64,000 nucleotides of DNA, taken from assembly GCA_030693235.1 (NCBI GenBank), contig JAUYBE010000006.1, forward strand, positions 2,758-66,757. Direction: 5' to 3'. Positions 15,536 to 52,866 of this stretch are shown here, piece by piece. Made by a program: the position numbers and the translations under genes. Source of the DNA: a bacterium (GTDB lineage Bacteria; Patescibacteriota; Minisyncoccia; UBA6257; UBA9933). The notes below the pieces were generated by a model that ran no database searches, was not told where the DNA came from, and saw nothing but the letters and a program-made list of their open reading frames with translations. Position 1 is the first letter of the stretch. Every line of letters begins with the position of its first letter.

Positions 15536-16219
15536 ATGGAGAAAGAAAAACATAAGGGAGCAGGACATAGAAAGCGATTGCGGGATAGATTTTTGCAGTC
15601 AGGACTCGGCGGGTTTCTTAACTATGAAATAGTGGAATTGCTTTTGACTTTGGGTGGTTCAATTCAAGATTGCAAACAGCAGGCAAAACAAGCGATTAAA
15701 AAATTTGGCGGATTGCGGAATGCACTTGACGCCCCGCCAGAAGAATTGCAACAAATAAAAGGAATCGGCCCAAGCAGTATTTTTGGCTTAAAACTTTTTC
15801 AGGCGATTTCCGAAAGATACGCGAAAGAAAAAATTTCCAAGAAAATTCCTTTAACATCGCCAAAAGCAGTGGCGGACTATTTGAGACAAAAACTGGGCAG
15901 AGAAAAGAAAGAAAATTTTGTAATTTTATCATTGGATAGCCGCAATAATTTAATAAAAGATGCCATTGTTTCTGTTGGCACGCTTAACGCTAATTTGGTT
16001 CATCCCCGCGAAGTTTTTAAAGAAGCAATTGACGCTCGCGCGGCTTCGGTAATCGTTGCTCACAACCACCCCTCCGGCGACTCGGAGCCGTCAGAAGATG
16101 ATTTGGTGATTACCAAAAGATTAGTAGAAGCTGGCAAAATTATGGGTATTGAAATAAACGACCATATTATTGTCGGTAAAACAACCTATCGCAGTTTAAA
16201 GAAAGATGGAGTTATATGA
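15536..16219 (+). CDS. radC: RadC-like JAB-domain protein (UPF0758)
   Basis: There is an HhH N-terminus. 'VAHNHPSGDSEPSEDD' is the JAMM/RadC motif. Confidence 0.8.
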   Translation: MEKEKHKGAGHRKRLRDRFLQSGLGGFLNYEIVELLLTLGGSIQDCKQQAKQAIKKFGGLRNALDAPPEELQQIKGIGPSSIFGLKLFQAISERYAKEKISKKIPLTSPKAVADYLRQKLGREKKENFVILSLDSRNNLIKDAIVSVGTLNANLVHPREVFKEAIDARAASVIVAHNHPSGDSEPSEDDLVITKRLVEAGKIMGIEINDHIIVGKTTYRSLKKDGVI

Positions 16220-18588
16220 CTAATCCACAAAATCAAAATTTATCAGAACGGGATATTTGTACCAAGTTTATAACCCCCGCGCTCGTAAAAGCCGGGTGGG
16301 ACGTACAAAAACAAATTCGCGAAGAGGTTTCATTTACCGCAGGCAGGATTATTGTCCGCGGCAAAACTGTATCTCGGGGAAAAGCCAAACGCGCCGATTA
16401 CATACTCTACTATAAATCCCATTTTCCTCTCGTTGTTATTGAAGCAAAAGACGCGGACCACTCGCTCGACGCCGGTCTTCCGCAAGCCGTGGACTACGGC
16501 GAAACGCTTGACGTGCCTTTCGTCTATAGCTCCAACGGCAGCGGTTTTATTGAGCACGACCGCACAAAATATTCCGGCAACATACAGCAAGAACTCTCCC
16601 TGGAAGAATTCCCGAGCCCGGAAAATCTTTACGCGCGTTATCGGGCATGGAGAAAAATTGCCGCGCCGGAAGAAAAAATCATCAACGAGGAATACTTTGA
16701 AGATATCGGCGGAAAACAACCCCGCTATTTCCAGCAAATCGCCATCAACCGCGCCATTGAGGCAATCGTCAAAGGCCAACAGCGCCTGCTTTTGGTCATG
16801 GCGACGGGCACGGGAAAAACATACACTGCGTTTCAAATCGCCTGGCGCCTGTGGAAAGCCGGAGCCAAAAAGCGAATTCTCTTTCTTGTTGATAGAAACA
16901 TTCTTGCGGATCAGCCGCGCCTGAACGATTTCGCGCCCTTTGGCGACAAAATGACAAAAATCACCCAAAGAAACGCCGACAAAGCCTACGAAGTGTATCT
17001 CGCGCTTTATCAGGCAGTTACCGGAACCGAGGAAGAAAGAAACATCTACAAGCAGTTTTCTCCGGATTTTTTTGACTTGGTTATCGTTGACGAATGTCAT
17101 CGCGGCAGCGCTAAGGCAAACTCCGCGTGGCGCGAGATTCTGGAATACTATTCCGGCGCGACGCAAATCGGCCTTACCGCAACCCCGAAAGAAACCAAAG
17201 ATATTTCCAACATTGAATATTTCGGCGAGCCCGTCTATACCTACTCTTTAAAGCAAGGCATAGAGGACGGTTTTCTTGCGCCCTACAAAGTGGTGCGCAT
17301 TACGCTTGATAAAGACCTTGAATGGCGGCCGGAAGCGGGCACGGTTGACGTGGAGGGAGAAGAAGTTCCCGACCGGATTTATAATGTGCGCGACTACGAC
17401 AGAAATATCATTCTTGATAAACGAACCGAGGTGGTGGCAAAAAAGATTACCGAATTTTTGAAAAACACCGACCGTTTTGATAAAACCATTGTCTTTTGCG
17501 CAAACATCAATCACGCCGAGCGGATGACCCGCGCGCTCATAAACGAAAACGCCGATCTCGCGAGCCAAAACAGCAAATACGTGGTGCGTATTACCGGCGA
17601 CCAGCCGGAAGGTAAAAAAGAGCTTGATAATTTTATCAATCCGGAAAGCAAATATCCGGTCATTGCCGTAACTTCCAAATTGATGACCACAGGCGTGGAT
17701 GCCCAGACCTGCAAAGTCATCGTGCTTGACCAAATCATCAACTCCATAAGCGAGTTTAAGCAGATTATCGGCCGCGGCACCCGCGTGCACGAGGACTACG
17801 GCAAATTTTTCTTTACCATTATTGACTTTCGAAACGCCACCGAGCTTTTTGCCGACCCCGCGTTTGACGGCCCGCCAATCCAAATTTACGAACCAAAGAA
17901 AGACGAATCGCCTGTGCCGCCCGAAGCATCGCCAGAGCACTCAGAGAATCAGGCCACGGCCGCGGAAGAAGAAACCGTGATTTACGACATCGCGTCCGAT
18001 GGCGCCGGCGTTGTTCGGGAAAAGCCAAAAGTGTATCGCGTGCGGGATGTTGAGGTGAAAATCATTCAGGAGCGGGTACAATACTACGATGAAAACGGAA
18101 AACTTATTTCCGAGTCGCTCAAGGACTACAGCAAAAAATCGCTTCTTAAAGAATACGCCTCGCTGGACGAATTTTTGAACGCTTGGAAAAGTTCCGAACG
18201 CAAAGAAGCCATCATTGAGGAGTTGCGTGAGCGCGGCGTTTTTCTTGACGAATTAAAACGCGAAACCGGCAAGGACTTGGACGAATTTGATCTCATCTGC
18301 CATGTGGCGTTCGGCAAGCCGCCGCTGACGAGGTATGAACGCGCCGAGAATGTCAAAAAGCGAAATTATTTTGCCGCATACGAAGCCAATGCCCGCGAGG
18401 TGCTTTCCGCCCTTCTTGAAAAGTACGCGGATCAGGGCATTACCGCGATTGAAAATCCGGAAGTGCTTCGCGTCTCGCCCTTCATCCAGTTCGGCACGCC
18501 GTATCAGATCATCAACGACATCTTCGGCGGACGGGAGAAGTATGTGGAGGCCGTACAAAGCATGGAGCAGGCGTTGTATAGCGCGTAA
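16216..18588 (+). CDS. hsdR: Type I restriction enzyme R subunit (HsdR)
   Basis: The N-terminus 'ERDICTKFITPALVKAGWD' is classic HsdR_N. The helicase motifs are 'MATGTGKT' and 'DECHR'. It is locally GC-richer (~50%) than the window average. Confidence 0.9.
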   Translation: MTNPQNQNLSERDICTKFITPALVKAGWDVQKQIREEVSFTAGRIIVRGKTVSRGKAKRADYILYYKSHFPLVVIEAKDADHSLDAGLPQAVDYGETLDVPFVYSSNGSGFIEHDRTKYSGNIQQELSLEEFPSPENLYARYRAWRKIAAPEEKIINEEYFEDIGGKQPRYFQQIAINRAIEAIVKGQQRLLLVMATGTGKTYTAFQIAWRLWKAGAKKRILFLVDRNILADQPRLNDFAPFGDKMTKITQRNADKAYEVYLALYQAVTGTEEERNIYKQFSPDFFDLVIVDECHRGSAKANSAWREILEYYSGATQIGLTATPKETKDISNIEYFGEPVYTYSLKQGIEDGFLAPYKVVRITLDKDLEWRPEAGTVDVEGEEVPDRIYNVRDYDRNIILDKRTEVVAKKITEFLKNTDRFDKTIVFCANINHAERMTRALINENADLASQNSKYVVRITGDQPEGKKELDNFINPESKYPVIAVTSKLMTTGVDAQTCKVIVLDQIINSISEFKQIIGRGTRVHEDYGKFFFTIIDFRNATELFADPAFDGPPIQIYEPKKDESPVPPEASPEHSENQATAAEEETVIYDIASDGAGVVREKPKVYRVRDVEVKIIQERVQYYDENGKLISESLKDYSKKSLLKEYASLDEFLNAWKSSERKEAIIEELRERGVFLDELKRETGKDLDEFDLICHVAFGKPPLTRYERAENVKKRNYFAAYEANAREVLSALLEKYADQGITAIENPEVLRVSPFIQFGTPYQIINDIFGGREKYVEAVQSMEQALYSA

Positions 18589-18680: not shown

Positions 18681-19814
18681 ATGAATACAGTAGAAATAGG
18701 TAAAAATAGGCCGCAAAAAGAAGGTTTTAACGCCTTTATTCCAAATTTGTTTCCACCTAATGGCGGGTTTAGTTTTGATGCGAAAATTCTCAAAAAGAAT
18801 GACGAGGCAACGCGCCTGCTAGGTAAACTTGATGGCATTACCCAACTTTTGCCGGACATAGATTTTTTTCTTTTCATGTATATTCGCAAAGACGCCGCAT
18901 CTTCAAGCCAAATTGAAGGGACGAGAGCGACGATGATTGATGCCATTGAAGCGGAAGCAAAAATTGATTCTGATATGCCGGAAGATGTTAATGACATTCT
19001 GCACTACATCAGAGCGCTCAATTACGGCCTCGCGCGGCTTGAAGAGTTTCCTTTTGTTTTGCGTTTTTTGCGTGAACTTCATAAAGAGCTGATGATAGGG
19101 GCGCGTGTAAGCCATTTCTCCAGCCCCGGTGAGTTTCGGGAAAGTCAAAATTGGATCGGCGGCACGCGCCCCGACAACGCGCATTTTGTTCCGCCGCCCG
19201 TGGATGAAATGAAACGCGCGCTTGCTGACCTTGAAAAATTCATCCATGCAAAAGACAATGAACTTTCTCTCATCAAGGCCGGTCTTGCGCACGCGCAATT
19301 TGAGACAATCCACCCGTTCCTTGATGGCAACGGACGTACGGGGCGCATGTTGATCACCTTCTATCTTTGGAAAGAAGGGCTTTTGGAAAGACCGGTCCTG
19401 TTTCTTTCTTCTTATTTTAAGAAGCATCAGAAAATATACTATGATCGCCTTGATAAATACCACGAAGGTGATGTGGAAGCGTGGATGGATTTCTTTCTTG
19501 ATGGCGTAATTGAGATTGCTAAAGAGGCGATAGGAACGGTTTTTTCGATTACCAAGTTGCGGGAACAGGACGCGATGAAAATACAGTCGTTAAGCAAACG
19601 CGCTTCAGAAAGTGCGGTGTTGGTGCTGCCCCAGCTTTATAAAATGCCAATTGTAAATGTGGCGAAAGTTCGGGAGTGGACAGGATTTACGCATGCCGGC
19701 GCGCAGAATCTGATTGATCGGTTTGTTGAACTTGATATTTTGCGCGATCGTAATCCAAATGTAACATACGGTAAATCATATATGTATAAAAAATACGTTG
19801 ATATTTTCGTTTAA
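18681..19814 (+). CDS. Fic/Doc family protein inserted between hsdR and hsdM
   Basis: It carries the Fic motif 'HPFLDGNGRTGR'. Confidence 0.85.
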   Translation: MNTVEIGKNRPQKEGFNAFIPNLFPPNGGFSFDAKILKKNDEATRLLGKLDGITQLLPDIDFFLFMYIRKDAASSSQIEGTRATMIDAIEAEAKIDSDMPEDVNDILHYIRALNYGLARLEEFPFVLRFLRELHKELMIGARVSHFSSPGEFRESQNWIGGTRPDNAHFVPPPVDEMKRALADLEKFIHAKDNELSLIKAGLAHAQFETIHPFLDGNGRTGRMLITFYLWKEGLLERPVLFLSSYFKKHQKIYYDRLDKYHEGDVEAWMDFFLDGVIEIAKEAIGTVFSITKLREQDAMKIQSLSKRASESAVLVLPQLYKMPIVNVAKVREWTGFTHAGAQNLIDRFVELDILRDRNPNVTYGKSYMYKKYVDIFV

Positions 19815-19818
19815 CACT

Positions 19819-21205
19819 ATGTCCGTTCAATCCATTATAAAATCAATCCAAGACATTATGCGCCAAGACGCCGGCGTGGACGGCGACGCCCAGAGAATTT
19901 CCCAAATCGTCTGGATGGTTTTTTTGAAAATGTTTGATGACAAAGAAAAAGAATACGGAACGCTTGACCCAAAATATAAATCTCCCATCCCCGAAAAACT
20001 TCGCTGGCGAAACTGGGCGGCAGACGAAGAAGGAATAACCGGCGAAAAACTGCTGGACTTTGTCAATAACGTTCTTTTCAAAGGATTCAAAAATCTTCCC
20101 GCGGGAGGCGACGCGCGCGGCCTGATTGTCCGCCAGGTGTTTGAAGACGCCTACAACTATAATGAAGTCCGGCACGCTTATCCGGCAGGTGGTAAATAAA
20201 ATTAACCAGATTGACTTTAACCGCAAAGACGAACGGCATCTTTTCAACGATATCTACGAACATATGTTGAAAGAGCTCCAGAGCGCGGGCAACGCAGGAG
20301 AATACTACACGCCGCGCCCGATCACGGAATTTATCGTGGAAATGACCGGACCCAAGCTCGGCCAAAAAATTCTTGACCCGGCCTGCGGCACCGGCGGATT
20401 TTTGGCAAACGCCATTGAATACATCCGCGGCCGCGAAGTCAAAAGCCCCAAAGACGAAAAGAAATTGCAGGAGTCGCTTTTTGGCGTGGAGGTCAAGCCG
20501 CTTCCGTATTTGCTCGCGATTACCAATCTTATGCTGCATAACATAGAAGTTCCCCGGCAGATTCGCCGCGCCGATATGCTGGCGCGTCCGCTTCGCGACT
20601 ATGGGCCGAGCGACCGGGTTGATATCATTGTTACCAATCCTCCTTTTGGCGCCATGGTGGCCACCGGCACCGATGCAAACTTTCCCGCGGAACTGCGCAC
20701 GCGCGAGACAGCAGACCTTTTCCTGGTGCTCATTATGCATCTCTTAAAATCCGGCGGGAGCGCTGGCATCGTGCTTCCGGACGGCTCGCTTTTCGGCGAA
20801 GGGGTAAAAACAAGAATCAGGGCAAAACTTCTGGAAGAATGCAATCTGCACACTATCGTGCGCTTGCCGCAGGGCGTATTTTCTCCCTACGCGGGCGTAA
20901 AAACAAACCTGCTTTTCTTTACCAAAGGAGAGCCCACCAAAGAGATTTGGTATTTTGAACACCCTCTGCCCGAGGGCTACCGCGCCTATTCCAAAAATCG
21001 CCCCATCCAGTCAAAAGAATTCGCGCTGGAGCGCAAGTGGTGGCAGAACCGCAAAAAAACCGCCAACGCCTGGAAGGTTTCCATTAAAGAAATCAAAGAC
21101 CAAAACTATAACCTTGATTTCAAAAACCCCAACGGCAAAACCGACCTCGCCCACAAGCCACCCGCGGAGTTGGTGAAGATATTACAAAAAATGAAAATGA
21201 AATAG
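19819..21205 (+). pseudogene. hsdM: Type I RM methyltransferase subunit HsdM, interrupted by a +1 frameshift (extra A at ~20161). It may be a sequencing error rather than genuine inactivation.
   Basis: HsdM_N is in frame 1 ('...RQVFEDAYNY' ending at 20199). The remainder is in frame 2 from 20126 ('MKSGTLIRQVVNKINQIDF...EYYTPRP...DPACGTGGFL...NPPFG'). The two parts are contiguous in the HsdM consensus 'VFEDAYNYMKSGTLLRQVINKI' if one A is removed from 'tataatg' at 20158-20164. Confidence 0.8.
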
Positions 21206-21428
21206 GTACAATAGTGGGTGAAATAAAGCAGATTTTATAGAATTCCATTCTAAATAATGTTCCAACGGCATTTCAGTTCCTAATTGTAATAGTTACTGAA
21301 TTTGAGGTACAGAGCAGTAATTTTTTCGAAATAGGGGTGTGGATAACTACCCCTATTGACTTTTTATATTACCCCGTGTAGTATTCCCAGTATGGGAACT
21401 ATGAACTGGGTAACCCGTATAAAAAAAT

Positions 21429-21716
21429 ATGAAATTAATAGGCAAACAATCATTGCAAGATTTTATAGGAAGGCATGCCGATACTCGATCACAGATTGAA
21501 TCGTGGAAGGCTGAAGTCGAAGAGGCAAAGTGGAGCACCCCACACGAGATTAAAAGCAAATACCCCAAGGCAAGTATTTTAAAGAATCAAAACGTAATTT
21601 TCGATATTTGTAGGAATAAATATCGGTTGTGGGCGAAGGTCAATTATAAGAACGGGTTAGTTTTGATAAAAAATATCGGCACACATAAGGAATATGAGAA
21701 ATGGGAAATAATTTAG
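21429..21716 (+). CDS. higB: HigB-like type II toxin (RelE superfamily)
   Basis: 'SWKAEVEEAKWSTPHEIKSKYPKASIL...CRNKYRLWAKVNYKNGLVLIKNIGTHKEYE' matches the HigB_toxin pattern (NKYRLI...FIGTHAEYD). Confidence 0.7.
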   Translation: MKLIGKQSLQDFIGRHADTRSQIESWKAEVEEAKWSTPHEIKSKYPKASILKNQNVIFDICRNKYRLWAKVNYKNGLVLIKNIGTHKEYEKWEII

Positions 21717-21724
21717 CAAACAAC

Positions 21725-22939
21725 ATGGACAAAATTAGAATCATAAAAACTGAACAAGATTATAAAGAAGCTCTCAAATTAGTCGAGAAGCTAATAATCT
21801 GTGATCCAAATCCAGATTCTCCCAAAGGAGAACAACTTAACCTTCTTGCCATTCTTATTCAAGATTATGAAGCGAGAGCCTTTCCAGAAATACTTCCCAA
21901 CCCAATTGAAGCTATCAAATTTAGAATGGAGCAAGCTGAACTCAAGCCCGCCGATCTCATTCCATATATTGGCAGTCGAAGTAGAGTATCCGAAATTCTT
22001 TCAGGTAAGCGCCAACTCACTTTGGATATGGTAAAAGCCTTATCTGATGGACTTGGAATTCCGGCGAAGGTATTAATAAAAAAACCTGATGAAAAAGAAG
22101 AAACAGAATACCAAAATTGGGATAACCGTCTTGTAGCAGAAATGGAAGCGCGAGGTTATTTCGGAAGTGCTTCAATAAAAAAATCCGGTAAAATTGAATT
22201 GCTCAAAAATTTCTTTTCGTTAGTTAGTTCTCCAGCCCAGATGGTGGGTATGTTGCGCAAATCTAGCTACAGATCATCTCCACTAACAGATAAACACGCA
22301 TTGTCTGCTTGGGCTAATCGTGTACTCAAAAAAGCTCAGAAGGTTAAAATAACAAAAAAATATAAGCACGGCACTATAGATATTAATTTCTTACAGGAGT
22401 TAGTAAAATTAAGCGCAAAAGAGAACAGCCCTATTTTAGCTCAAGAATATCTGAAGAAGTACGGAATTGTATTGGTGATTGAGCCTCATTTTTCTAAAAC
22501 CTATCTGGATGGTGCGGCCATTCTTGTAAATAAAGATAACCCGATTATCGGTCTAACCCTTAGATACGACCGGTTAGATAATTTCTGGTTTACTATACTG
22601 CACGAATTGGCACATATCGTCCGACATTACGATAGCGGTATCAGTCTCTTTTTCGATGAGATCGAAGGAATAAAAGCGATTGACTTAGATGAAAAAGAAA
22701 AAGAAGCCGATGCGTTAGCTGAGGATATTATTCTACCGAAAGCTAAATGGGAGATCAGTCCTGCTAGACTCATCCCTTCTTCTATGGCGGCAAATAGCTT
22801 GGCTAATGAGCTTGGAGTGCATATAGCTCTTGTCGCCGGGCAAATCAGGCATAAAGGAAATAAGTACGTTTATTTAAACAAAATTGTGAACGAATCTAAA
22901 GTTAGAAATTATTTCCCCAACGAAAAGTGGAATAAATAA
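21725..22939 (+). CDS. HigA-like HTH antitoxin fused to an ImmA/IrrE-family zinc metallopeptidase domain (HEXXH); the track ORF starts at 21701
   Basis: The N-terminal HTH is 'RSRVSEILSGKRQLTLDMVKAL'. The C-terminal 'FTILHELAHIVRHYD' is the HEXXH of COG2856/ImmA peptidases. Confidence 0.7.
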   Translation: MDKIRIIKTEQDYKEALKLVEKLIICDPNPDSPKGEQLNLLAILIQDYEARAFPEILPNPIEAIKFRMEQAELKPADLIPYIGSRSRVSEILSGKRQLTLDMVKALSDGLGIPAKVLIKKPDEKEETEYQNWDNRLVAEMEARGYFGSASIKKSGKIELLKNFFSLVSSPAQMVGMLRKSSYRSSPLTDKHALSAWANRVLKKAQKVKITKKYKHGTIDINFLQELVKLSAKENSPILAQEYLKKYGIVLVIEPHFSKTYLDGAAILVNKDNPIIGLTLRYDRLDNFWFTILHELAHIVRHYDSGISLFFDEIEGIKAIDLDEKEKEADALAEDIILPKAKWEISPARLIPSSMAANSLANELGVHIALVAGQIRHKGNKYVYLNKIVNESKVRNYFPNEKWNK

Positions 22940-22940
22940 C

Positions 22941-24020
22941 ATGTTTAATTCAAAGCATTATGTCCCAATATTGAAATGGAAACGCGCCGAACAAGGGGCG
23001 CTTAAAGCATTAAGAGAAAAGCACAAAAAGAACATTACTCCTTTGGTTCAATTTGTGATGCCGAAAAACAAACCACAAGAGCAGCTTGGAGATGTCATAA
23101 AGAGATTTGAGAGACAATTGACTGAAATATCAGCAAAATTAATTGATGTATGGGGTCTCACACCAATATTCGTGGATGTTAGCTTATTATTCTCTACTCC
23201 TTTGAAAACTAAAGCTCTCGACGTTATTTCGCGAGAAGGCCATAGACTCGGAGGCATTTTTATCCCAGTTGCACATCTTAATGATAACGAGCAGATCATA
23301 AAATCAGCCATAGTTGTCGCAAAAAAGACTGAAAAAGGACTGTGTCTGAGATTAATAAGCTCGGATTTCTCGAACACGACTGAACTGAATCAAAATATTA
23401 CCAAATTTTTTTCGGGGGGATTAAGCGAGAAAGATATTGATCTACTGGTTGATATTAAGGAAACCGAAAAGAACGTAGATAAATATGTTAAGTATATAAA
23501 TTTAAGCCAGAACATTCCCGGCTTGTCGAAATGGCGAACGTTTACTTTTGCGAGCGGTTCCTTCCCTGAAGATCTATCTGAATGCAAACTCGATGAAGAA
23601 AATCTCATGCCGCGTATTGACTGGAAAAGTTGGAAAGAACATATTAGTAAAAAGCTACAAAGAAAACCAACATTTGCTGATTACACAATTCAGCACCCGG
23701 TCTATAAAGAAATTACTCAATTTTTCCATCCGACTTCAAGTATTAAATATACTCTGGAAAATGACTGGTTGATTATGAAGGGAAAAAAACAAAAATTCGA
23801 ACTATACTTGGCAAGTGCGGCGGAGTTAGTAAAGGACAAAAGATTTTCCGGAGAAAACTTCAGTGAAGGCGACAAATACATTGCGGAAAAAGCTAAACAT
23901 TTCGAAACGTATATAAAAAATCCCGCGATCAAAGGCACGGGAAGCACTGAGACCTGGCTTAAGGCCGGCATTAACCACCATTTATCGCTAGTTGCGGATC
24001 AGATCGCCAACCTTCCCTAG
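22941..24020 (+). CDS. Beta_protein (PF14350)-like protein; tentative
   Basis: The N-terminus 'YVPILKWKRAEQGAL' resembles the Beta_protein family signature (YVPxLKxKxGExxAL). The stop-start junction with the upstream HTH-peptidase gene is only 2 nt. The assignment is from memory of the family signature and is not verified. Confidence 0.45.
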   Translation: MFNSKHYVPILKWKRAEQGALKALREKHKKNITPLVQFVMPKNKPQEQLGDVIKRFERQLTEISAKLIDVWGLTPIFVDVSLLFSTPLKTKALDVISREGHRLGGIFIPVAHLNDNEQIIKSAIVVAKKTEKGLCLRLISSDFSNTTELNQNITKFFSGGLSEKDIDLLVDIKETEKNVDKYVKYINLSQNIPGLSKWRTFTFASGSFPEDLSECKLDEENLMPRIDWKSWKEHISKKLQRKPTFADYTIQHPVYKEITQFFHPTSSIKYTLENDWLIMKGKKQKFELYLASAAELVKDKRFSGENFSEGDKYIAEKAKHFETYIKNPAIKGTGSTETWLKAGINHHLSLVADQIANLP

Positions 24021-24642
24021 AAACAAGTAATGAACTTACATGTTTTTTAAGGACACTGGTTTCTAATACATTAGCAAGTTTTTCATATACGAATTCTCGT
24101 GGCTTATGGCGCACCTCATCTGCCTCGTTTTGCTCTTCCAGAATTCCAAGTGCTTCTTCTCTCCATAATAACCGAGCTATGGAGATGCCTTTCTGTTTTT
24201 TGTTTTGCTCTGGCTTGCGAATCGTCTGAAAGACAACGCGATCATTATCATCAGTCTTCGCAATCATTACACCCCACCAATCAGGAATGATATGCATTGC
24301 GTGATACAAATGACGTTTTCCTACGACAAGAGTCATCTTATCAAAAACAGAATTGAATTCTTCTACTTGTTCAGGTAATCGTTCTAGCGTATCGCGATCA
24401 CTTTTTATTTCATACCCGCACATTACACCATTAATAATAGCGAGGTCTATTCTTGCGGTTCCGTGTCGGACACCAAGTTCTTCAAAAATTTCTGCCTTAT
24501 GTCCCTTCTTTCGGTACCTTTCTAGTTCTTTATCTAAAACACTTTTTCGGAGAGCTACGCGTATAACTTTATCGTTTGTTGAAAACATTTGATTGTGAGT
24601 TTTTGTTTCCATGGTTAAAAAACTCTTTTTATATATTAGCAC
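23971..24642 (-). CDS. MmcB-like PD-(D/E)xK nuclease family protein (antisense, between the Beta-like gene and hsdS); probable start at Met 24612
   Basis: 'HGTARIDLAIINGVMCGYEIKSDRDTLERLPEQVEEFNSVFDKMTLVV' matches the MmcB-like D...ExK core. Its 3' end overlaps the convergent gene by 50 nt. Confidence 0.5.
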   Translation of the reverse strand: MLIYKKSFLTMETKTHNQMFSTNDKVIRVALRKSVLDKELERYRKKGHKAEIFEELGVRHGTARIDLAIINGVMCGYEIKSDRDTLERLPEQVEEFNSVFDKMTLVVGKRHLYHAMHIIPDWWGVMIAKTDDNDRVVFQTIRKPEQNKKQKGISIARLLWREEALGILEEQNEADEVRHKPREFVYEKLANVLETSVLKKHVSSLLVSREGWRSDPQLAINGG

Positions 24643-24741
24643 ATCTAAAACATATTTTAAACACTCGCCTTGTGATTAATAAGTAAAATACATCAACACT
24701 CCTTTATTTTATAGCAAAATTTGGATAAAGTTAAGTAAACT

Positions 24742-25962
24742 ATGGAAACTAACCATCCAACAAAAAAACTCGGAGAGGTTGTAGATATTTTGGATAACCT
24801 CAGAAAACCGGTGACAAGACGGGAAAGATTGCTTGGCCCATATCCATATTATGGTGCTACCGGTGTTCAGGATTATGTGGCCAATTTTATTTTTGACGAA
24901 GACCTTGTTTTAGTCGGTGAAGATGGCGCCCGATGGAATGCTGGCGATAACTCTGCATATAAAATATCAGGAAAAAGCTGGGTCAATAACCATGCTCATG
25001 TTTTGCGTCCACACAGAGATATTTTACTGGATGATTGGCTTGTATACTTTTTGAACATCTCCGATTTGTCTGGATACATTACGGGAACTACGGTCAAAAA
25101 ATTGAATCAAGCAAAACTAAGGTTAATCGAAATCCCTATCCCTTCTCTTGCGGAGCAGAGGAAAATTGTGGAAAAAATTGAAAAACTTTTTGCGAAAATT
25201 GACGAAGCCAGCCGCCTCCGCGCCGAATCTCTCACCGCCTCCGCCGCCCTCCTCCCCTCCGCCCTCCACCAAATCTTTAGTTCGGCAAGCTCACCACAAG
25301 CTTCCCACCAAAAACATTCCAACATTCTTGAGAATGTGAGAATATCGCAAACCAAGCAAAAAGCTTGGGAAGAAAAGAAAATAGGCGAAATTGCCGAGAT
25401 CAATCCTTCAAAAAGAGAAATCGCTGAAATTAACGCCAGCACAGAAATATCATTTGTTTCAATGTCGGCAGTAAGTGAAAAAACTCAAATCATTGAGAGA
25501 CAAGAAACAAGAAAAATAGATGAGGTGAAAAAGGGCTATACCTATTTCAGAGAAGACGATGTGCTTTTTGCCAAAATAACACCGTGTATGGAAAATGGAA
25601 AAGTAACTATCGCGAAAAACCTAAAAAACGGCATTGGGTTTGGTTCAACTGAATTTCATGTGTTGCGCGCGAAAGAGAATGTTTTATCAAAATGGCTATT
25701 TTATTTTTTGTGGAATCCGGAATTCAGAAAGGAGGCACAAAACAATATGACCGGCACGGCTGGCCAACGCCGTGTGCCGATGGAATTTTTAACAAAGGTA
25801 AAAATCCCTCTCCCGCCCGTTGCCGAGCAAAAAAAAATCGTGGAATATCTTGATTCGCTTTCCGCCAAGGCGCGTGCGTTGCAATCATTGCAACAGGAAA
25901 CAAAAAACGACTTTTCCGCCCTTCGCCAATCCGTGCTTCATCAGTCATTTTCTACCAAATAA
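24742..25962 (+). CDS. hsdS: Type I RM specificity subunit (HsdS), two TRDs
   Basis: The N-terminus is 'KLGEVVDILDNLRKPVTRRERLLGPYPYYGATG'. The conserved central and C-terminal helices are 'LAEQRKIVEKIEKLFAKIDEA' and 'VAEQKKIVEYLDSLSAKARALQ'. Confidence 0.85.
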   Translation: METNHPTKKLGEVVDILDNLRKPVTRRERLLGPYPYYGATGVQDYVANFIFDEDLVLVGEDGARWNAGDNSAYKISGKSWVNNHAHVLRPHRDILLDDWLVYFLNISDLSGYITGTTVKKLNQAKLRLIEIPIPSLAEQRKIVEKIEKLFAKIDEASRLRAESLTASAALLPSALHQIFSSASSPQASHQKHSNILENVRISQTKQKAWEEKKIGEIAEINPSKREIAEINASTEISFVSMSAVSEKTQIIERQETRKIDEVKKGYTYFREDDVLFAKITPCMENGKVTIAKNLKNGIGFGSTEFHVLRAKENVLSKWLFYFLWNPEFRKEAQNNMTGTAGQRRVPMEFLTKVKIPLPPVAEQKKIVEYLDSLSAKARALQSLQQETKNDFSALRQSVLHQSFSTK

Positions 25963-26189
25963 CATACCAACAAACTTGAGAATGTAAGGATGTTATGGAA
26001 CCGACAAAACCCAACTCCTCGCCCAGCGAGCTAAATTGAAAGAACTATTTGATAGCGTGTTGTATAAATCAATGAGGCCTCGCTGATGTTTTAAGCGAAA
26101 TATAGGGTGTGTATAACTTTTTGACATTGCTATTGACAAATAATTTTACATCGGATAAATTGAAAGTAGTTAATAAAAAAAATAAAATT

Positions 26190-26966
26190 ATGTTTTCAAA
26201 ATTTATTCAAAAATTGCGAAAAAAGAATAATTTGACGCAGGGGTTTTTGGCGTCGGAGATTGGCGTGTCTCGCCCGACTTATGCTCAAATAGAGCAAGGC
26301 GAGCGGGACTTGACTATTACCGAGGCGAAAAAGCTGGCGGCTATTTTTAGTATTCCCATCAAGGATTTTTTAGAAAATAAAGATTCTTCTATAATCACAA
26401 AAATTGAAAAAGACGAGAATAAATCAAAACCGCATAAACAAGAAATAAGAATTAATATTCCGCAAAAAAACTTAAAGAAGTTTAAGGAAGTTTTTCTTTA
26501 TGTGCTGGCAAAAGTTGGCAATAAATCCAATATCGGGGAAAGCGTTTTAAACAAATTATTTTATTTTATTGATTTTGACTATTACGAAAAATACGAAGAA
26601 CAGCTAATTGGCGCTACTTACATTAAAAATCATTACGGACCAACGCCTTGCGAATTAAAAAAAATTGTTGACGAAATGAAAAAAAATAAAGAAATTGAAG
26701 AAATCAAAAGCAAGTATTTTAAATTTGACCAAAAAAAGTATCTTCCCTTAAGAAAACCCAACCTTGATATTCTTTCCGCAAGAGAAATAGGGCTTATAGA
26801 TGATGTTTTGAATCGTCTTTCTGACAAAAGCGCGAGTGAAATTCGCGATTATTCTCATGAAGATATTCCGTTTAAGGTTCATAAAGACGGCGAGAAAATC
26901 GATTACGAAACCGTTTTCTACCGCGATGAAAAATATTCCGTAAGAAGCTATGACGATAAACTTTAA
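26190..26966 (+). CDS. HTH_XRE + DUF4065/Panacea-domain protein (second PanA-like antitoxin); the track ORF starts at 26109
   Basis: The HTH is 'LRKKNNLTQGFLASEIGVSRPTYAQIEQGERDLTITEAKKL'. The Panacea-like domain is 'NKLFYFIDFDYYEKYEEQLIGATYIKNHYGPTPCEL'. It overlaps the downstream gene by 17 nt. Confidence 0.55.
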   Translation: MFSKFIQKLRKKNNLTQGFLASEIGVSRPTYAQIEQGERDLTITEAKKLAAIFSIPIKDFLENKDSSIITKIEKDENKSKPHKQEIRINIPQKNLKKFKEVFLYVLAKVGNKSNIGESVLNKLFYFIDFDYYEKYEEQLIGATYIKNHYGPTPCELKKIVDEMKKNKEIEEIKSKYFKFDQKKYLPLRKPNLDILSAREIGLIDDVLNRLSDKSASEIRDYSHEDIPFKVHKDGEKIDYETVFYRDEKYSVRSYDDKL

Positions 26967-27288
26967 TGAATTACCAGAATTTTCAAAAGAATACAAACGC
27001 TATCTTAAAAAATATAGAACATTAGATAGCGATTTTTTAAATTTTAAAAAAATTATTTTATCCATACCGTGTGGAGTTGGTAAACATTTTAATATAATCG
27101 CCATTTCAAATGATATTAAAATTATTAAAGCTCGTTTATTTTGTCGCTATTTAAAAGGCACTTCTTTGAGAGTTATTTACGCTTTTCATTGTACTAATCT
27201 AAAAATTGATTTTATTGAGATATATCCCAAAAGCGACAAGGAAAACGAAGATCGCGAGAGAATAAGAGCGTATTTGAAAAATTTTTAG
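26950..27288 (+). CDS. Putative RelE/ParE-like toxin partner
   Basis: It is 112 aa. 'LRVIYAFHCTNLKIDFIEIYPKSDKEN' resembles the RelE/ParE C-terminal signature. It is translationally coupled to the upstream antitoxin-like gene. Confidence 0.45.
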   Translation: MTINFNELPEFSKEYKRYLKKYRTLDSDFLNFKKIILSIPCGVGKHFNIIAISNDIKIIKARLFCRYLKGTSLRVIYAFHCTNLKIDFIEIYPKSDKENEDRERIRAYLKNF

Positions 27289-52712: not shown

Positions 52713-52782
52713 GGCGGGGTGGACCAATGGTAGGTCGGGAGGCTCATAATCTCCAGAAGTGGGTTCAATTCCCACCCCCGCA
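52713..52782 (+). tRNA. tRNA with a CAU anticodon (Met elongator or Ile2-lysidine type); short D-arm, CCA not encoded
   Basis: 'GGCGGGGTGGACCAATGGTAGGTCGGGAGGCTCATAATCTCCAGAAGTGGGTTCAATTCCCACCCCCGCA'. The anticodon loop is CTCATAA and the T-loop is TTCAATT. Confidence 0.65.
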
Positions 52783-52791
52783 ACATTCTTC

Positions 52792-52866
52792 GTCGGCGTA
52801 GCTCAGTGGCAGAGCGAGGGACTCATAAACCCTAGGTCACAGGTTCGATCCCTGTCGCCGGCACCA
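52792..52866 (+). tRNA. tRNA-Met (CAU), possibly the initiator (three G-C pairs in the anticodon stem), with CCA encoded
   Basis: 'GTCGGCGTAGCTCAGTGGCAGAGCGAGGGACTCATAAACCCTAGGTCACAGGTTCGATCCCTGTCGCCGGCACCA'. Confidence 0.8.

Follow-up and report, generated by a model that had tools for sequence, protein, structure and literature searches.

The 64,000-nucleotide (nt) window analyzed here (contig JAUYBE010000006.1 of assembly GCA_030693235.1, positions 2,758 to 66,757 of the forward strand; all coordinates below are those of the window) comes from an uncultivated bacterium that, judged by its closest homologues, is probably Patescibacteria-like. Between hsdM and hsdS of a type I restriction-modification (RM) cluster it carries a compact group of genes that very probably is a PD-lambda-2-type defence cassette with a constant cII partner. 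The cassette, at about 21356-24641, is a self-contained 3.3-kb anti-phage unit with four genes instead of three: genes A, B and C, which have the composition of PD-lambda-2, and gene D, which converges on C and belongs to the family of phage P4 cII. Relative to the literature searched, the constant fourth gene is new, as is the bridge between PD-lambda-2 and the gop-beta-cII system of P4. The genes were located as follows in the list of open reading frames (ORFs):

21429-21716, forward strand: gene A, 95 amino acids (aa), predicted HigB-family toxin
21701-22939, forward strand: gene B, 412 aa, fusion of a HigA-like helix-turn-helix (HTH) domain and an M78 peptidase
22941-24020, forward strand: gene C, 359 aa, P4 beta-family protein
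23971-24612, reverse strand: gene D, 213 aa, P4 cII / sce7726-family protein (the mechanical ORF reaches a GTG at 24642)

The A-B-C trio spans 21429-24020, between the end of hsdM at 21205 and the start of hsdS at 24742, and its compact, co-oriented order is kept in all related loci. A and B overlap by 16 nt; with the alternative start of B at Met9 (ATG 21725), which is used by most B homologues, the two genes would lie 8 nt apart. C begins 1 nt past the stop codon of B, and D is convergent with C, the 3' ends overlapping by 50 nt. The start of D is most likely the ATG at 24612, as in its database record and in the D homologues. The ORF coordinates confirm what an earlier reading made from the sequence alone (hereafter the sequence-only reading) had described between hsdM and hsdS, namely three tightly packed genes and a convergent, overlapping fourth.

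Gene A matches the Pfam family HigB_toxin (E-value 4.7e-26) and the PADLOC model PD-Lambda-2_A (1.6e-38, model positions 1-93 of 94), and its alignment with E. coli HigB (5ycl_B, 6e-4) spans the full length. It is intact in all related loci. The assignment to the HigB family was thereby borne out, and A is predicted to be a HigB-family (RelE-like) mRNA interferase toxin. In gene B, an HTH_3 domain (7e-5) is joined to a Peptidase_M78 domain (4.2e-7, above the 22-bit cut-off), and the protein matches PADLOC PD-Lambda-2_B almost from end to end (4.6e-143, model positions 1-399 of 402). Residues 15-124 match E. coli HigA (5ycl_A, 1.5e-10); this HigA-like part makes up the first ~125 residues of the 412-aa fusion, and there is no small stand-alone HigA antitoxin of about 100-140 aa. 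The M78 ImmA/IrrE peptidase domain covers about residues 264-360. Its HELAH motif is encoded at 22601-22615, and 21 homologues, the most distant at 38% identity, all keep H301, E302 and H305. Together, the HTH_3, Peptidase_M78 and 5ycl_A matches and the invariant HELAH uphold the earlier description of B as a HigA-like HTH joined to a COG2856/M78 HEXXH peptidase. B is 73-86% identical to ~120 database proteins of many phyla and has weak PADLOC matches to capP (2.8e-6) and RmrA.

For gene C, a likeness to the Beta_protein family had been seen at the N-terminus. The family was right, but the restriction to the N-terminus was not, as the whole protein matches Pfam Beta_protein (residues 7-351 of 359, 4.1e-59). 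C further matches PADLOC PD-Lambda-2_C (1.8e-37) and PADLOC 'beta' (7.2e-8) and can be aligned with P4 beta; it is a member of the P4 beta family with a predicted TIM-barrel fold. Residues Y7, D171, P209, D247, G310, W339 and H347 are invariant across very distant members of the family, and K12/K14, R137 and the SGSFP and NHH motifs are almost invariant, a pattern that suggests an active site. The variable part of C comprises residues 41-160, which are much less conserved than the remainder.

Gene D was assigned by its matches to NCBIfam sce7726_fam (1.6e-49, above the 70-bit cut-off) and PADLOC 'cll' (5.5e-27), by the precomputed Pfam entry PF26915 Phage_P4_cII in its database record, and by 36.6% identity to P4 cII over ~100 residues in tblastn; the local Pfam copy gave no match to it. 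The fold is that of PD-(D/E)xK proteins, a restriction-endonuclease-like alpha/beta core with a D...(D/E)xK motif, and the E, D and ExK residues are invariant in the family. D is a P4 cII / sce7726-family protein of the PD-(D/E)xK nuclease fold. The sequence-only reading had called it MmcB-like: the resemblance holds for the fold but not for the sequence, as Pfam MmcB (PF06319) matched none of 40 D-family members at E <= 1, and no sequence-level link of D to MmcB or to any solved structure was found. C and D are under selection, because both keep invariant catalytic-type residues. Across the four ORFs, family profiles thus support all domain assignments at the level of hidden Markov models (HMMs) or of the fold.

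A, B and C match the PADLOC PD-lambda-2 models over their full length; the system is listed as 'PD-Lambda-2' by PADLOC and DefenseFinder alike. PD-lambda-2 was isolated by functional selection from E. coli ECOR42 and described as a HigB-like protein, a HigA-like HTH-peptidase fusion and a protein related to the P4 antitoxin (Vassallo et al., 2022, PMC9519451). In that system B alone is toxic and is rescued by A, defence against lambda-vir depends on C, and the whole was grouped with abortive-infection systems resembling toxin-antitoxin (TA) modules (PMC9519451). Earlier still, a RelE-family toxin with an Xre-COG2856 fusion had been predicted to form a three-component TA system (Makarova et al., 2009, PMC2701414). 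It was therefore wrong to regard the arrangement as undescribed: a HigB, an Xre-M78 fusion and a P4-beta-like protein are PD-lambda-2, and the toxin/fusion pair was predicted in 2009. The proposal of an abortive-infection or TA-type system, made in the same reading, agrees with the experiments on the E. coli homologue. Searches for mechanistic literature on PD-lambda-2 or sce7725/sce7726 returned surveys and genome reports only.

To define the conservation of the unit, loci were scanned with one genome per species, which gave 31 loci (referred to by L numbers). Nineteen were judged, namely those in which B, at 57-82% identity, is complete or nearly so and enough sequence follows downstream. 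B, C and a convergent D with a 3' overlap of ~40 nt were present in all 19, and A was found in every judged locus whose 5' end is uncut. The judged loci stem from Syntrophaceae, Planctomycetota, Omnitrophota, Aminicenantes, Patescibacteria, Gammaproteobacteria, Bacteroidota, Saccharibacteria and Atribacterota. Seven further metagenome contexts hold the same four genes, and within the clade to which the window belongs all 26 contexts have D. The trio and its antisense gene are co-conserved in every related locus examined.

The closest relative of the window is a Taylorbacteria contig; DNA homology to it amounts to 78% identity and covers exactly 21356-24612. The limits of this block coincide with the first base of the -35 box upstream of A (21356) and the first base of the D start codon (24612), and these two positions are the borders of the exchanged unit. 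No flanking direct repeats, target-site duplication or terminal inverted repeats were found around 21206-24741. Among 18 cassettes, mean pairwise identity is 71% for B, 63.5% for A, 60.5% for D and 57% for C, which makes B the most conserved gene (70-86% identical across phyla) and C the least conserved. The fast evolution of beta would fit a role in recognising phage products. C and D types have been recombined between loci: the B and C types of the window are those of L001/L020, and its D type is that of L002-L005/L014.

The control elements of the region are:

21356-21384, forward strand: -35/-10 promoter of A-B-C, TTGACT at 21356-21361, 17 nt, TAGTAT at 21379-21384
21384-21398, no strand assigned: candidate operator palindrome TTCCCA-GTA-TGGGAA (TTCCCAGTATGGGAA), sharing the last base of the -10 box, 30 nt 5' of the A start codon
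24633-24641, reverse strand: extended -10 of the gene D promoter (TGCTAATAT), TGnTAnAAT-like
21330-21338 and 21349-21357, forward strand: 9-bp perfect inverted repeat AATAGGGGT / ACCCCTATT, followed by a T-run, with a terminator-like score
23921-23942, reverse strand: terminator-like hairpin and T-run for the D transcript, inside the 3' coding end of C (tentative)

A TTGACT/TAGTAT site had been noted before with an 18-nt spacer; the site is present and conserved across loci, but the spacer is 17 nt. Promoter-like sites are not in excess in the region (17 versus 13.9 +/- 3.6 in shuffled sequence). In most of 20 homologous upstream regions a TTGAC-type -35 and an A/T-rich -10 hexamer keep the same register, and 13 of the 20 pass an automated scan in which -35 box, spacer and palindrome must all be present. 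A-B-C are accordingly assigned a predicted, conserved sigma-70-type promoter of the TTGACA-17-TATAAT-like kind. The TTCCCA-N3-TGGGAA palindrome occurs in all 20 upstream regions, 27-37 nt 5' of the A ATG. In the 64 kb of the window it occurs once, and at least one match was present in 19 of 100 shuffles. Its position is that of a classical autorepression operator, and we infer that it is bound by the HigA-like HTH of B.

A TGnTAnAAT-like element lies 5' of the D start in most of 17 related loci examined. No second copy of the TTCCCA/TGGGAA palindrome was found at the D promoter or elsewhere in the window, and for this reason D is probably expressed independently of B. The perfect 9-bp inverted repeat reported earlier in the leader is real. 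It was considered as an operator and rejected: it is not conserved, is terminator-like and lies outside the homology block 21356-24612. The repeat is absent 5' of the homologous operons, save for a partly similar stretch in L006, and probably is the intrinsic terminator of hsdM, outside the cassette. A terminator of D inside C was likewise rejected as a conserved feature, since only L001, L006, L008 and L020, the closest relatives, share the hairpin; some other loci show another hairpin or just a T-run. No Rfam RNA elements were found in the leader or in the C/D overlap.

The second half of the cassette connects it to phage P4. There the order is gop (+), beta (+) and cII (-), with cII converging on beta and carrying the RefSeq name 'sce7726 family protein'. 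The P4 system gop-beta-cII defends against lambda and P1, the toxicity of Gop being countered by beta (PMC9122126), and is triggered by a phage accessory gene (bioRxiv 10.1101/2023.04.06.535777). Gop was not found in the window: A and B have no PADLOC gop match (P4 Gop itself scores 4.8e-70), and tblastn of P4 Gop against the window returned nothing at E <= 0.01. The pair of beta and convergent cII is met again, at 23-28% identity, on plasmids of proteobacteria and actinobacteria and in P4. C has 18 plasmid matches, and beneath the 3' end of nearly every one there is an sce7726 gene; beta/convergent-sce7726 pairs in a satellite and in plasmids overlap by 23-47 nt. On a Sinorhizobium plasmid the pair stands behind a gene without assigned function and an XRE-M78 gene. 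HigB + HTH-M78 pairs without beta or cII occur on plasmids, in prophages and in many viral contigs. Judged by these gene contexts, the family is modular, with an A-B front end and a beta-cII back end that combine variously, the window holding the four-gene combination; they also suggest that the beta/sce7726 pair is able to stand alone.

Several mobile elements carry related arrangements. In L035 (3800-6980, E. coli QDFD216 chromosome), a P4-like satellite beside tRNA-Leu, the P4 defence hotspot contains genes for a 227-aa hypothetical protein and a 300-aa ImmA/IrrE peptidase that lacks a HigA domain, followed by beta, with which a convergent sce7726 gene overlaps. This is another front end on the beta/cII core, and by DNA search it is present in 1 of 5,426 E. 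coli genomes. When the window cassette was compared by blastn with these 5,426 genomes, the only match was one of 91 nt in a different P4-satellite system, and blastn with that E. coli P4-satellite locus found itself only. A beta/sce7726 pair without recognisable toxin or regulator in front was seen in L039 (3489-5124, E. coli phage-plasmid pSTEC1024_3) and on Rhodococcus plasmids, among them L041 (3477-5079, Rhodococcus ruber plasmid).

It is possible, if somewhat doubtful, that the beta TIM barrel and the convergent cII-like nuclease are the true conserved core of a wider defence superfamily with interchangeable front ends (Gop; a protein with ImmA/IrrE; HigB with HigA-M78; none). If so, PD-lambda-2 and Gop-beta-cII would be two faces of one modular system, and the nuclease of the four-gene clade would be a required effector or sensor that was missed by the E. 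coli experiments. A link between PD-lambda-2 and Gop-beta-cII is not stated in the literature searched or in the PADLOC three-gene PD-Lambda-2 model set.

The cassette sits in a 12-kb defence island with the following neighbours:

15536-16219: RadC-like JAB gene, overlapping the hsdR start
16216-18588: hsdR, EcoAI type
18681-19814: Fic/DOC gene between hsdR and hsdM, PADLOC SoFic 3.7e-108
19798-21205, forward strand: hsdM, split by a +1 frameshift into HsdM_N (19798-20199) and N6_Mtase (20126-21205)
24742-25962, forward strand: hsdS, two Methylase_S target-recognition domains, diverging from D
26109-27288: HTH_3 + SocA_Panacea gene (285 aa) and overlapping 112-aa ORF, directly 3' of hsdS

The Fic gene is a second defence-type insert in the hsd cluster; it stays below the NCBIfam equivalog cut-off (139 versus 550 bits). 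The 112-aa ORF behind hsdS is without family match, and together with its neighbour it looks like a Panacea-type antitoxin with an uncharacterised toxin. The frameshift in hsdM lies near 20158-20170 and apparently stems from a surplus A in AACTATAATGAAG, where N-Y-M-K-S-G would be the reading in intact homologues. In an independent Logan assembly of the same sample, hsdM is divided in the same way (113 + 347 aa). If the frameshift is real, the type I system is unable to methylate or restrict. The GC content is ~50% in hsdR and hsdM, 42% in hsdS, 37-39% in the cassette and 37.8% in the window. The hsdR-fic-hsdM block is foreign-looking and may differ in origin from hsdS. Elsewhere in the window, at 52713-52866, two tRNA-Met (CAT) genes lie 8 nt apart.

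The sequence-only reading had attached significance to the nesting of the cassette in an RM operon. This could not be sustained: no related cassette lies between hsdM and hsdS among the related loci examined, and the relatives are found beside RM systems of type I or II, integrases and other defence genes. Type I RM genes adjoin the cassettes of L004, L008, L011, L013, L016, L020 and L125, and type II RM genes or methyltransferases those of L037, L121, L126 and L127; other neighbours are integrases, recombinases, AbiEii, GmrSD and BrnTA. The Taylorbacteria relative has RadC and a BpuJI-like type II RM system followed by the cassette, and only the cassette is shared with the window at the DNA level. 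The position between hsdM and hsdS is best explained by defence-island clustering, with no functional tie to the type I enzyme indicated. RadC genes, dissimilar at the DNA level, were observed in L121 (1485-2147) and L125 (7538-7999, just 5' of the cassette). RadC, an RM system and the cassette may be a recurrent island organisation.

A possible mode of action can be outlined by analogy. In uninfected cells A and B would hold each other inactive as a mutually neutralising complex, while the HigA-like HTH of B would bind TTCCCA-N3-TGGGAA and repress the operon. The beta/cII pair would sense infection or a DNA state caused by it, with beta, the fastest-evolving component, as the specificity determinant and the cII-like protein acting on DNA as a second effector or signal generator. 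By analogy with ImmA/ImmR, IrrE/DdrO and CapP/CapH, the signal would activate the M78 peptidase, so that the A-B complex is broken, the operon derepressed and HigB freed. HigB, possibly together with the toxic activity of B, would then halt translation before the phage cycle is completed, and the nuclease may add a DNA-directed blow. We regard this specific chain of events as rather unlikely to be right.

Several observations weigh against the four-gene reading or against this mechanism. By its coordinates, the defence-conferring E. coli clone included no more than 396 bp besides the three genes, and therefore contained no complete cII gene. An A-B-C clade without D exists (L052, L054) and is the one closest to the PADLOC PD-lambda-2 models (L052: B 609, C 448 bits; window: B 475, C 127 bits), so the cII partner is not universally required. 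The shuffling of C and D types speaks against a close mutual adaptation of the two proteins. The TIM-barrel matches of beta are generic and do not allow a substrate to be assigned. Finally, the simple release of HigB may be the wrong model, because in E. coli it was B, and not HigB, that behaved as the toxic component. Some of these points, namely the clade lacking D, the function of the E. coli clone without the full downstream gene and the independent recombination of C and D types, would also be expected if A-B-C were an ordinary three-gene PD-lambda-2 and D an unrelated solitary nuclease or repair gene, and so would the separate D promoter without operator palindrome. Chance neighbourhood of this kind is nevertheless quite improbable, given that in all 26 clade contexts D recurs, oriented alike and with an identical 3' overlap arrangement, that the beta/convergent-cII pair reappears at 23-28% identity in plasmids and P4, and that the D family is sce7726 according to NCBI and has no MmcB match.

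A tie to the restriction system, as known for PrrC and EcoprrI, would make the cassette fire when an anti-restriction factor of a phage disables the type I enzyme. The physical nesting in the hsd locus would suit such a guard, as would the RM genes found within ~9 kb of the cassette in about half of the related loci and the fact that the trigger gene of P4 gop-beta-cII adjoins the anti-restriction gene ral (bioRxiv 10.1101/2023.04.06.535777). We consider it improbable: the cassette lies within an hsd operon in no other locus, the RM systems beside it are unrelated in type, the conserved DNA block stops exactly at the cassette borders, and E. coli PD-lambda-2 defends when cloned alone. In the window itself hsdM is frameshifted, and the GC content of hsdR/hsdM (50%) versus that of the cassette (38%) points to separate origins. 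The cassette could also be an addiction module only, a HigBA-type stabiliser of the island with beta and cII as passengers and without a role in phage defence in this host. HigB + HTH-M78 pairs that occur alone on plasmids and prophages, the homology of A and of the B N-terminus to E. coli HigB and HigA, and a candidate autoregulatory palindrome typical of type II TA systems are all in line with this idea. It is nonetheless highly improbable, since the E. coli homologue does defend and needs C, since defence genes (RM, SoFic, AbiEii, GmrSD, BrnTA) surround the cassette in nearly every locus, and since C and D keep their invariant catalytic-type residues.

Read as a defence cassette of the PD-lambda-2 type in which cII is a constant partner, the locus introduces no new principle; it clarifies two defence systems that are annotated but mechanistically opaque. 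PD-lambda-2 is widespread far beyond E. coli, including bacteria of the candidate phyla radiation, and its B proteins are ~75% identical across phyla. In the environment it most commonly comes with a fourth gene, the cII-like nuclease, which P4 gop-beta-cII also has. For annotators this means that the three-gene definition overlooks a constant partner in this clade. Now that the limits of the unit, its promoter, a candidate operator and, in each of the four proteins, the invariant residues are defined, a basis for probing phage sensing is available.

Compared with known systems, the cassette shares with PrrC, which lies in the EcoprrI type I RM locus, the placement of an abortive-infection-type element inside an hsd cluster. 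The two are, however, not homologous, the nesting is not conserved here and hsdM is frameshifted. With HigBA of E. coli K-12 (PDB 5ycl/5ifg) the cassette shares the toxin-first order, the likeness of A to HigB and of the B N-terminus to HigA, and a palindrome at the promoter, which here lies in the -10/+1 region as a candidate operator. In contrast to HigBA, the antitoxin homologue bears a 290-aa extension with a metallopeptidase whose active site is intact, and the roles are reversed in E. coli PD-lambda-2, where the 'antitoxin' is the toxic partner. An M78/COG2856 HEXXH domain paired with an Xre HTH, as in B, is also found in ImmA-ImmR of ICEBs1, in IrrE-DdrO of Deinococcus and in CapP-CapH of the cyclic-oligonucleotide-based anti-phage signalling system (CBASS). 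In switches of this type the protease inactivates an Xre repressor on a stress or infection signal; here, by contrast, HTH and protease are one polypeptide, encoded 3' of a toxin gene.

The closest counterparts are the two phage-defence systems themselves. PD-lambda-2 has the same three proteins in the same order and with the same tight packing as A-B-C. It differs in that the clade of the window always adds the convergent, overlapping cII/sce7726 gene, which is missing from the clade that scores best with PADLOC, in that C of the window reaches only 127 bits on the nearest C model, and in its host, E. coli as opposed to an uncultivated, apparently Patescibacteria-like bacterium. Gop-beta-cII of P4 (Ghisotti, 1990; Rousset et al., 2022) has the same core of beta followed by a convergent cII, both homologous to C and D, and like the cassette it is a defence or abortive-type system of mobile elements. 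In P4, however, beta and cII do not overlap but lie 27 nt apart with a terminator between them, and cII has a C-terminal extension of ~50 aa, whereas the window has HigB and the HTH-M78 fusion in place of gop.

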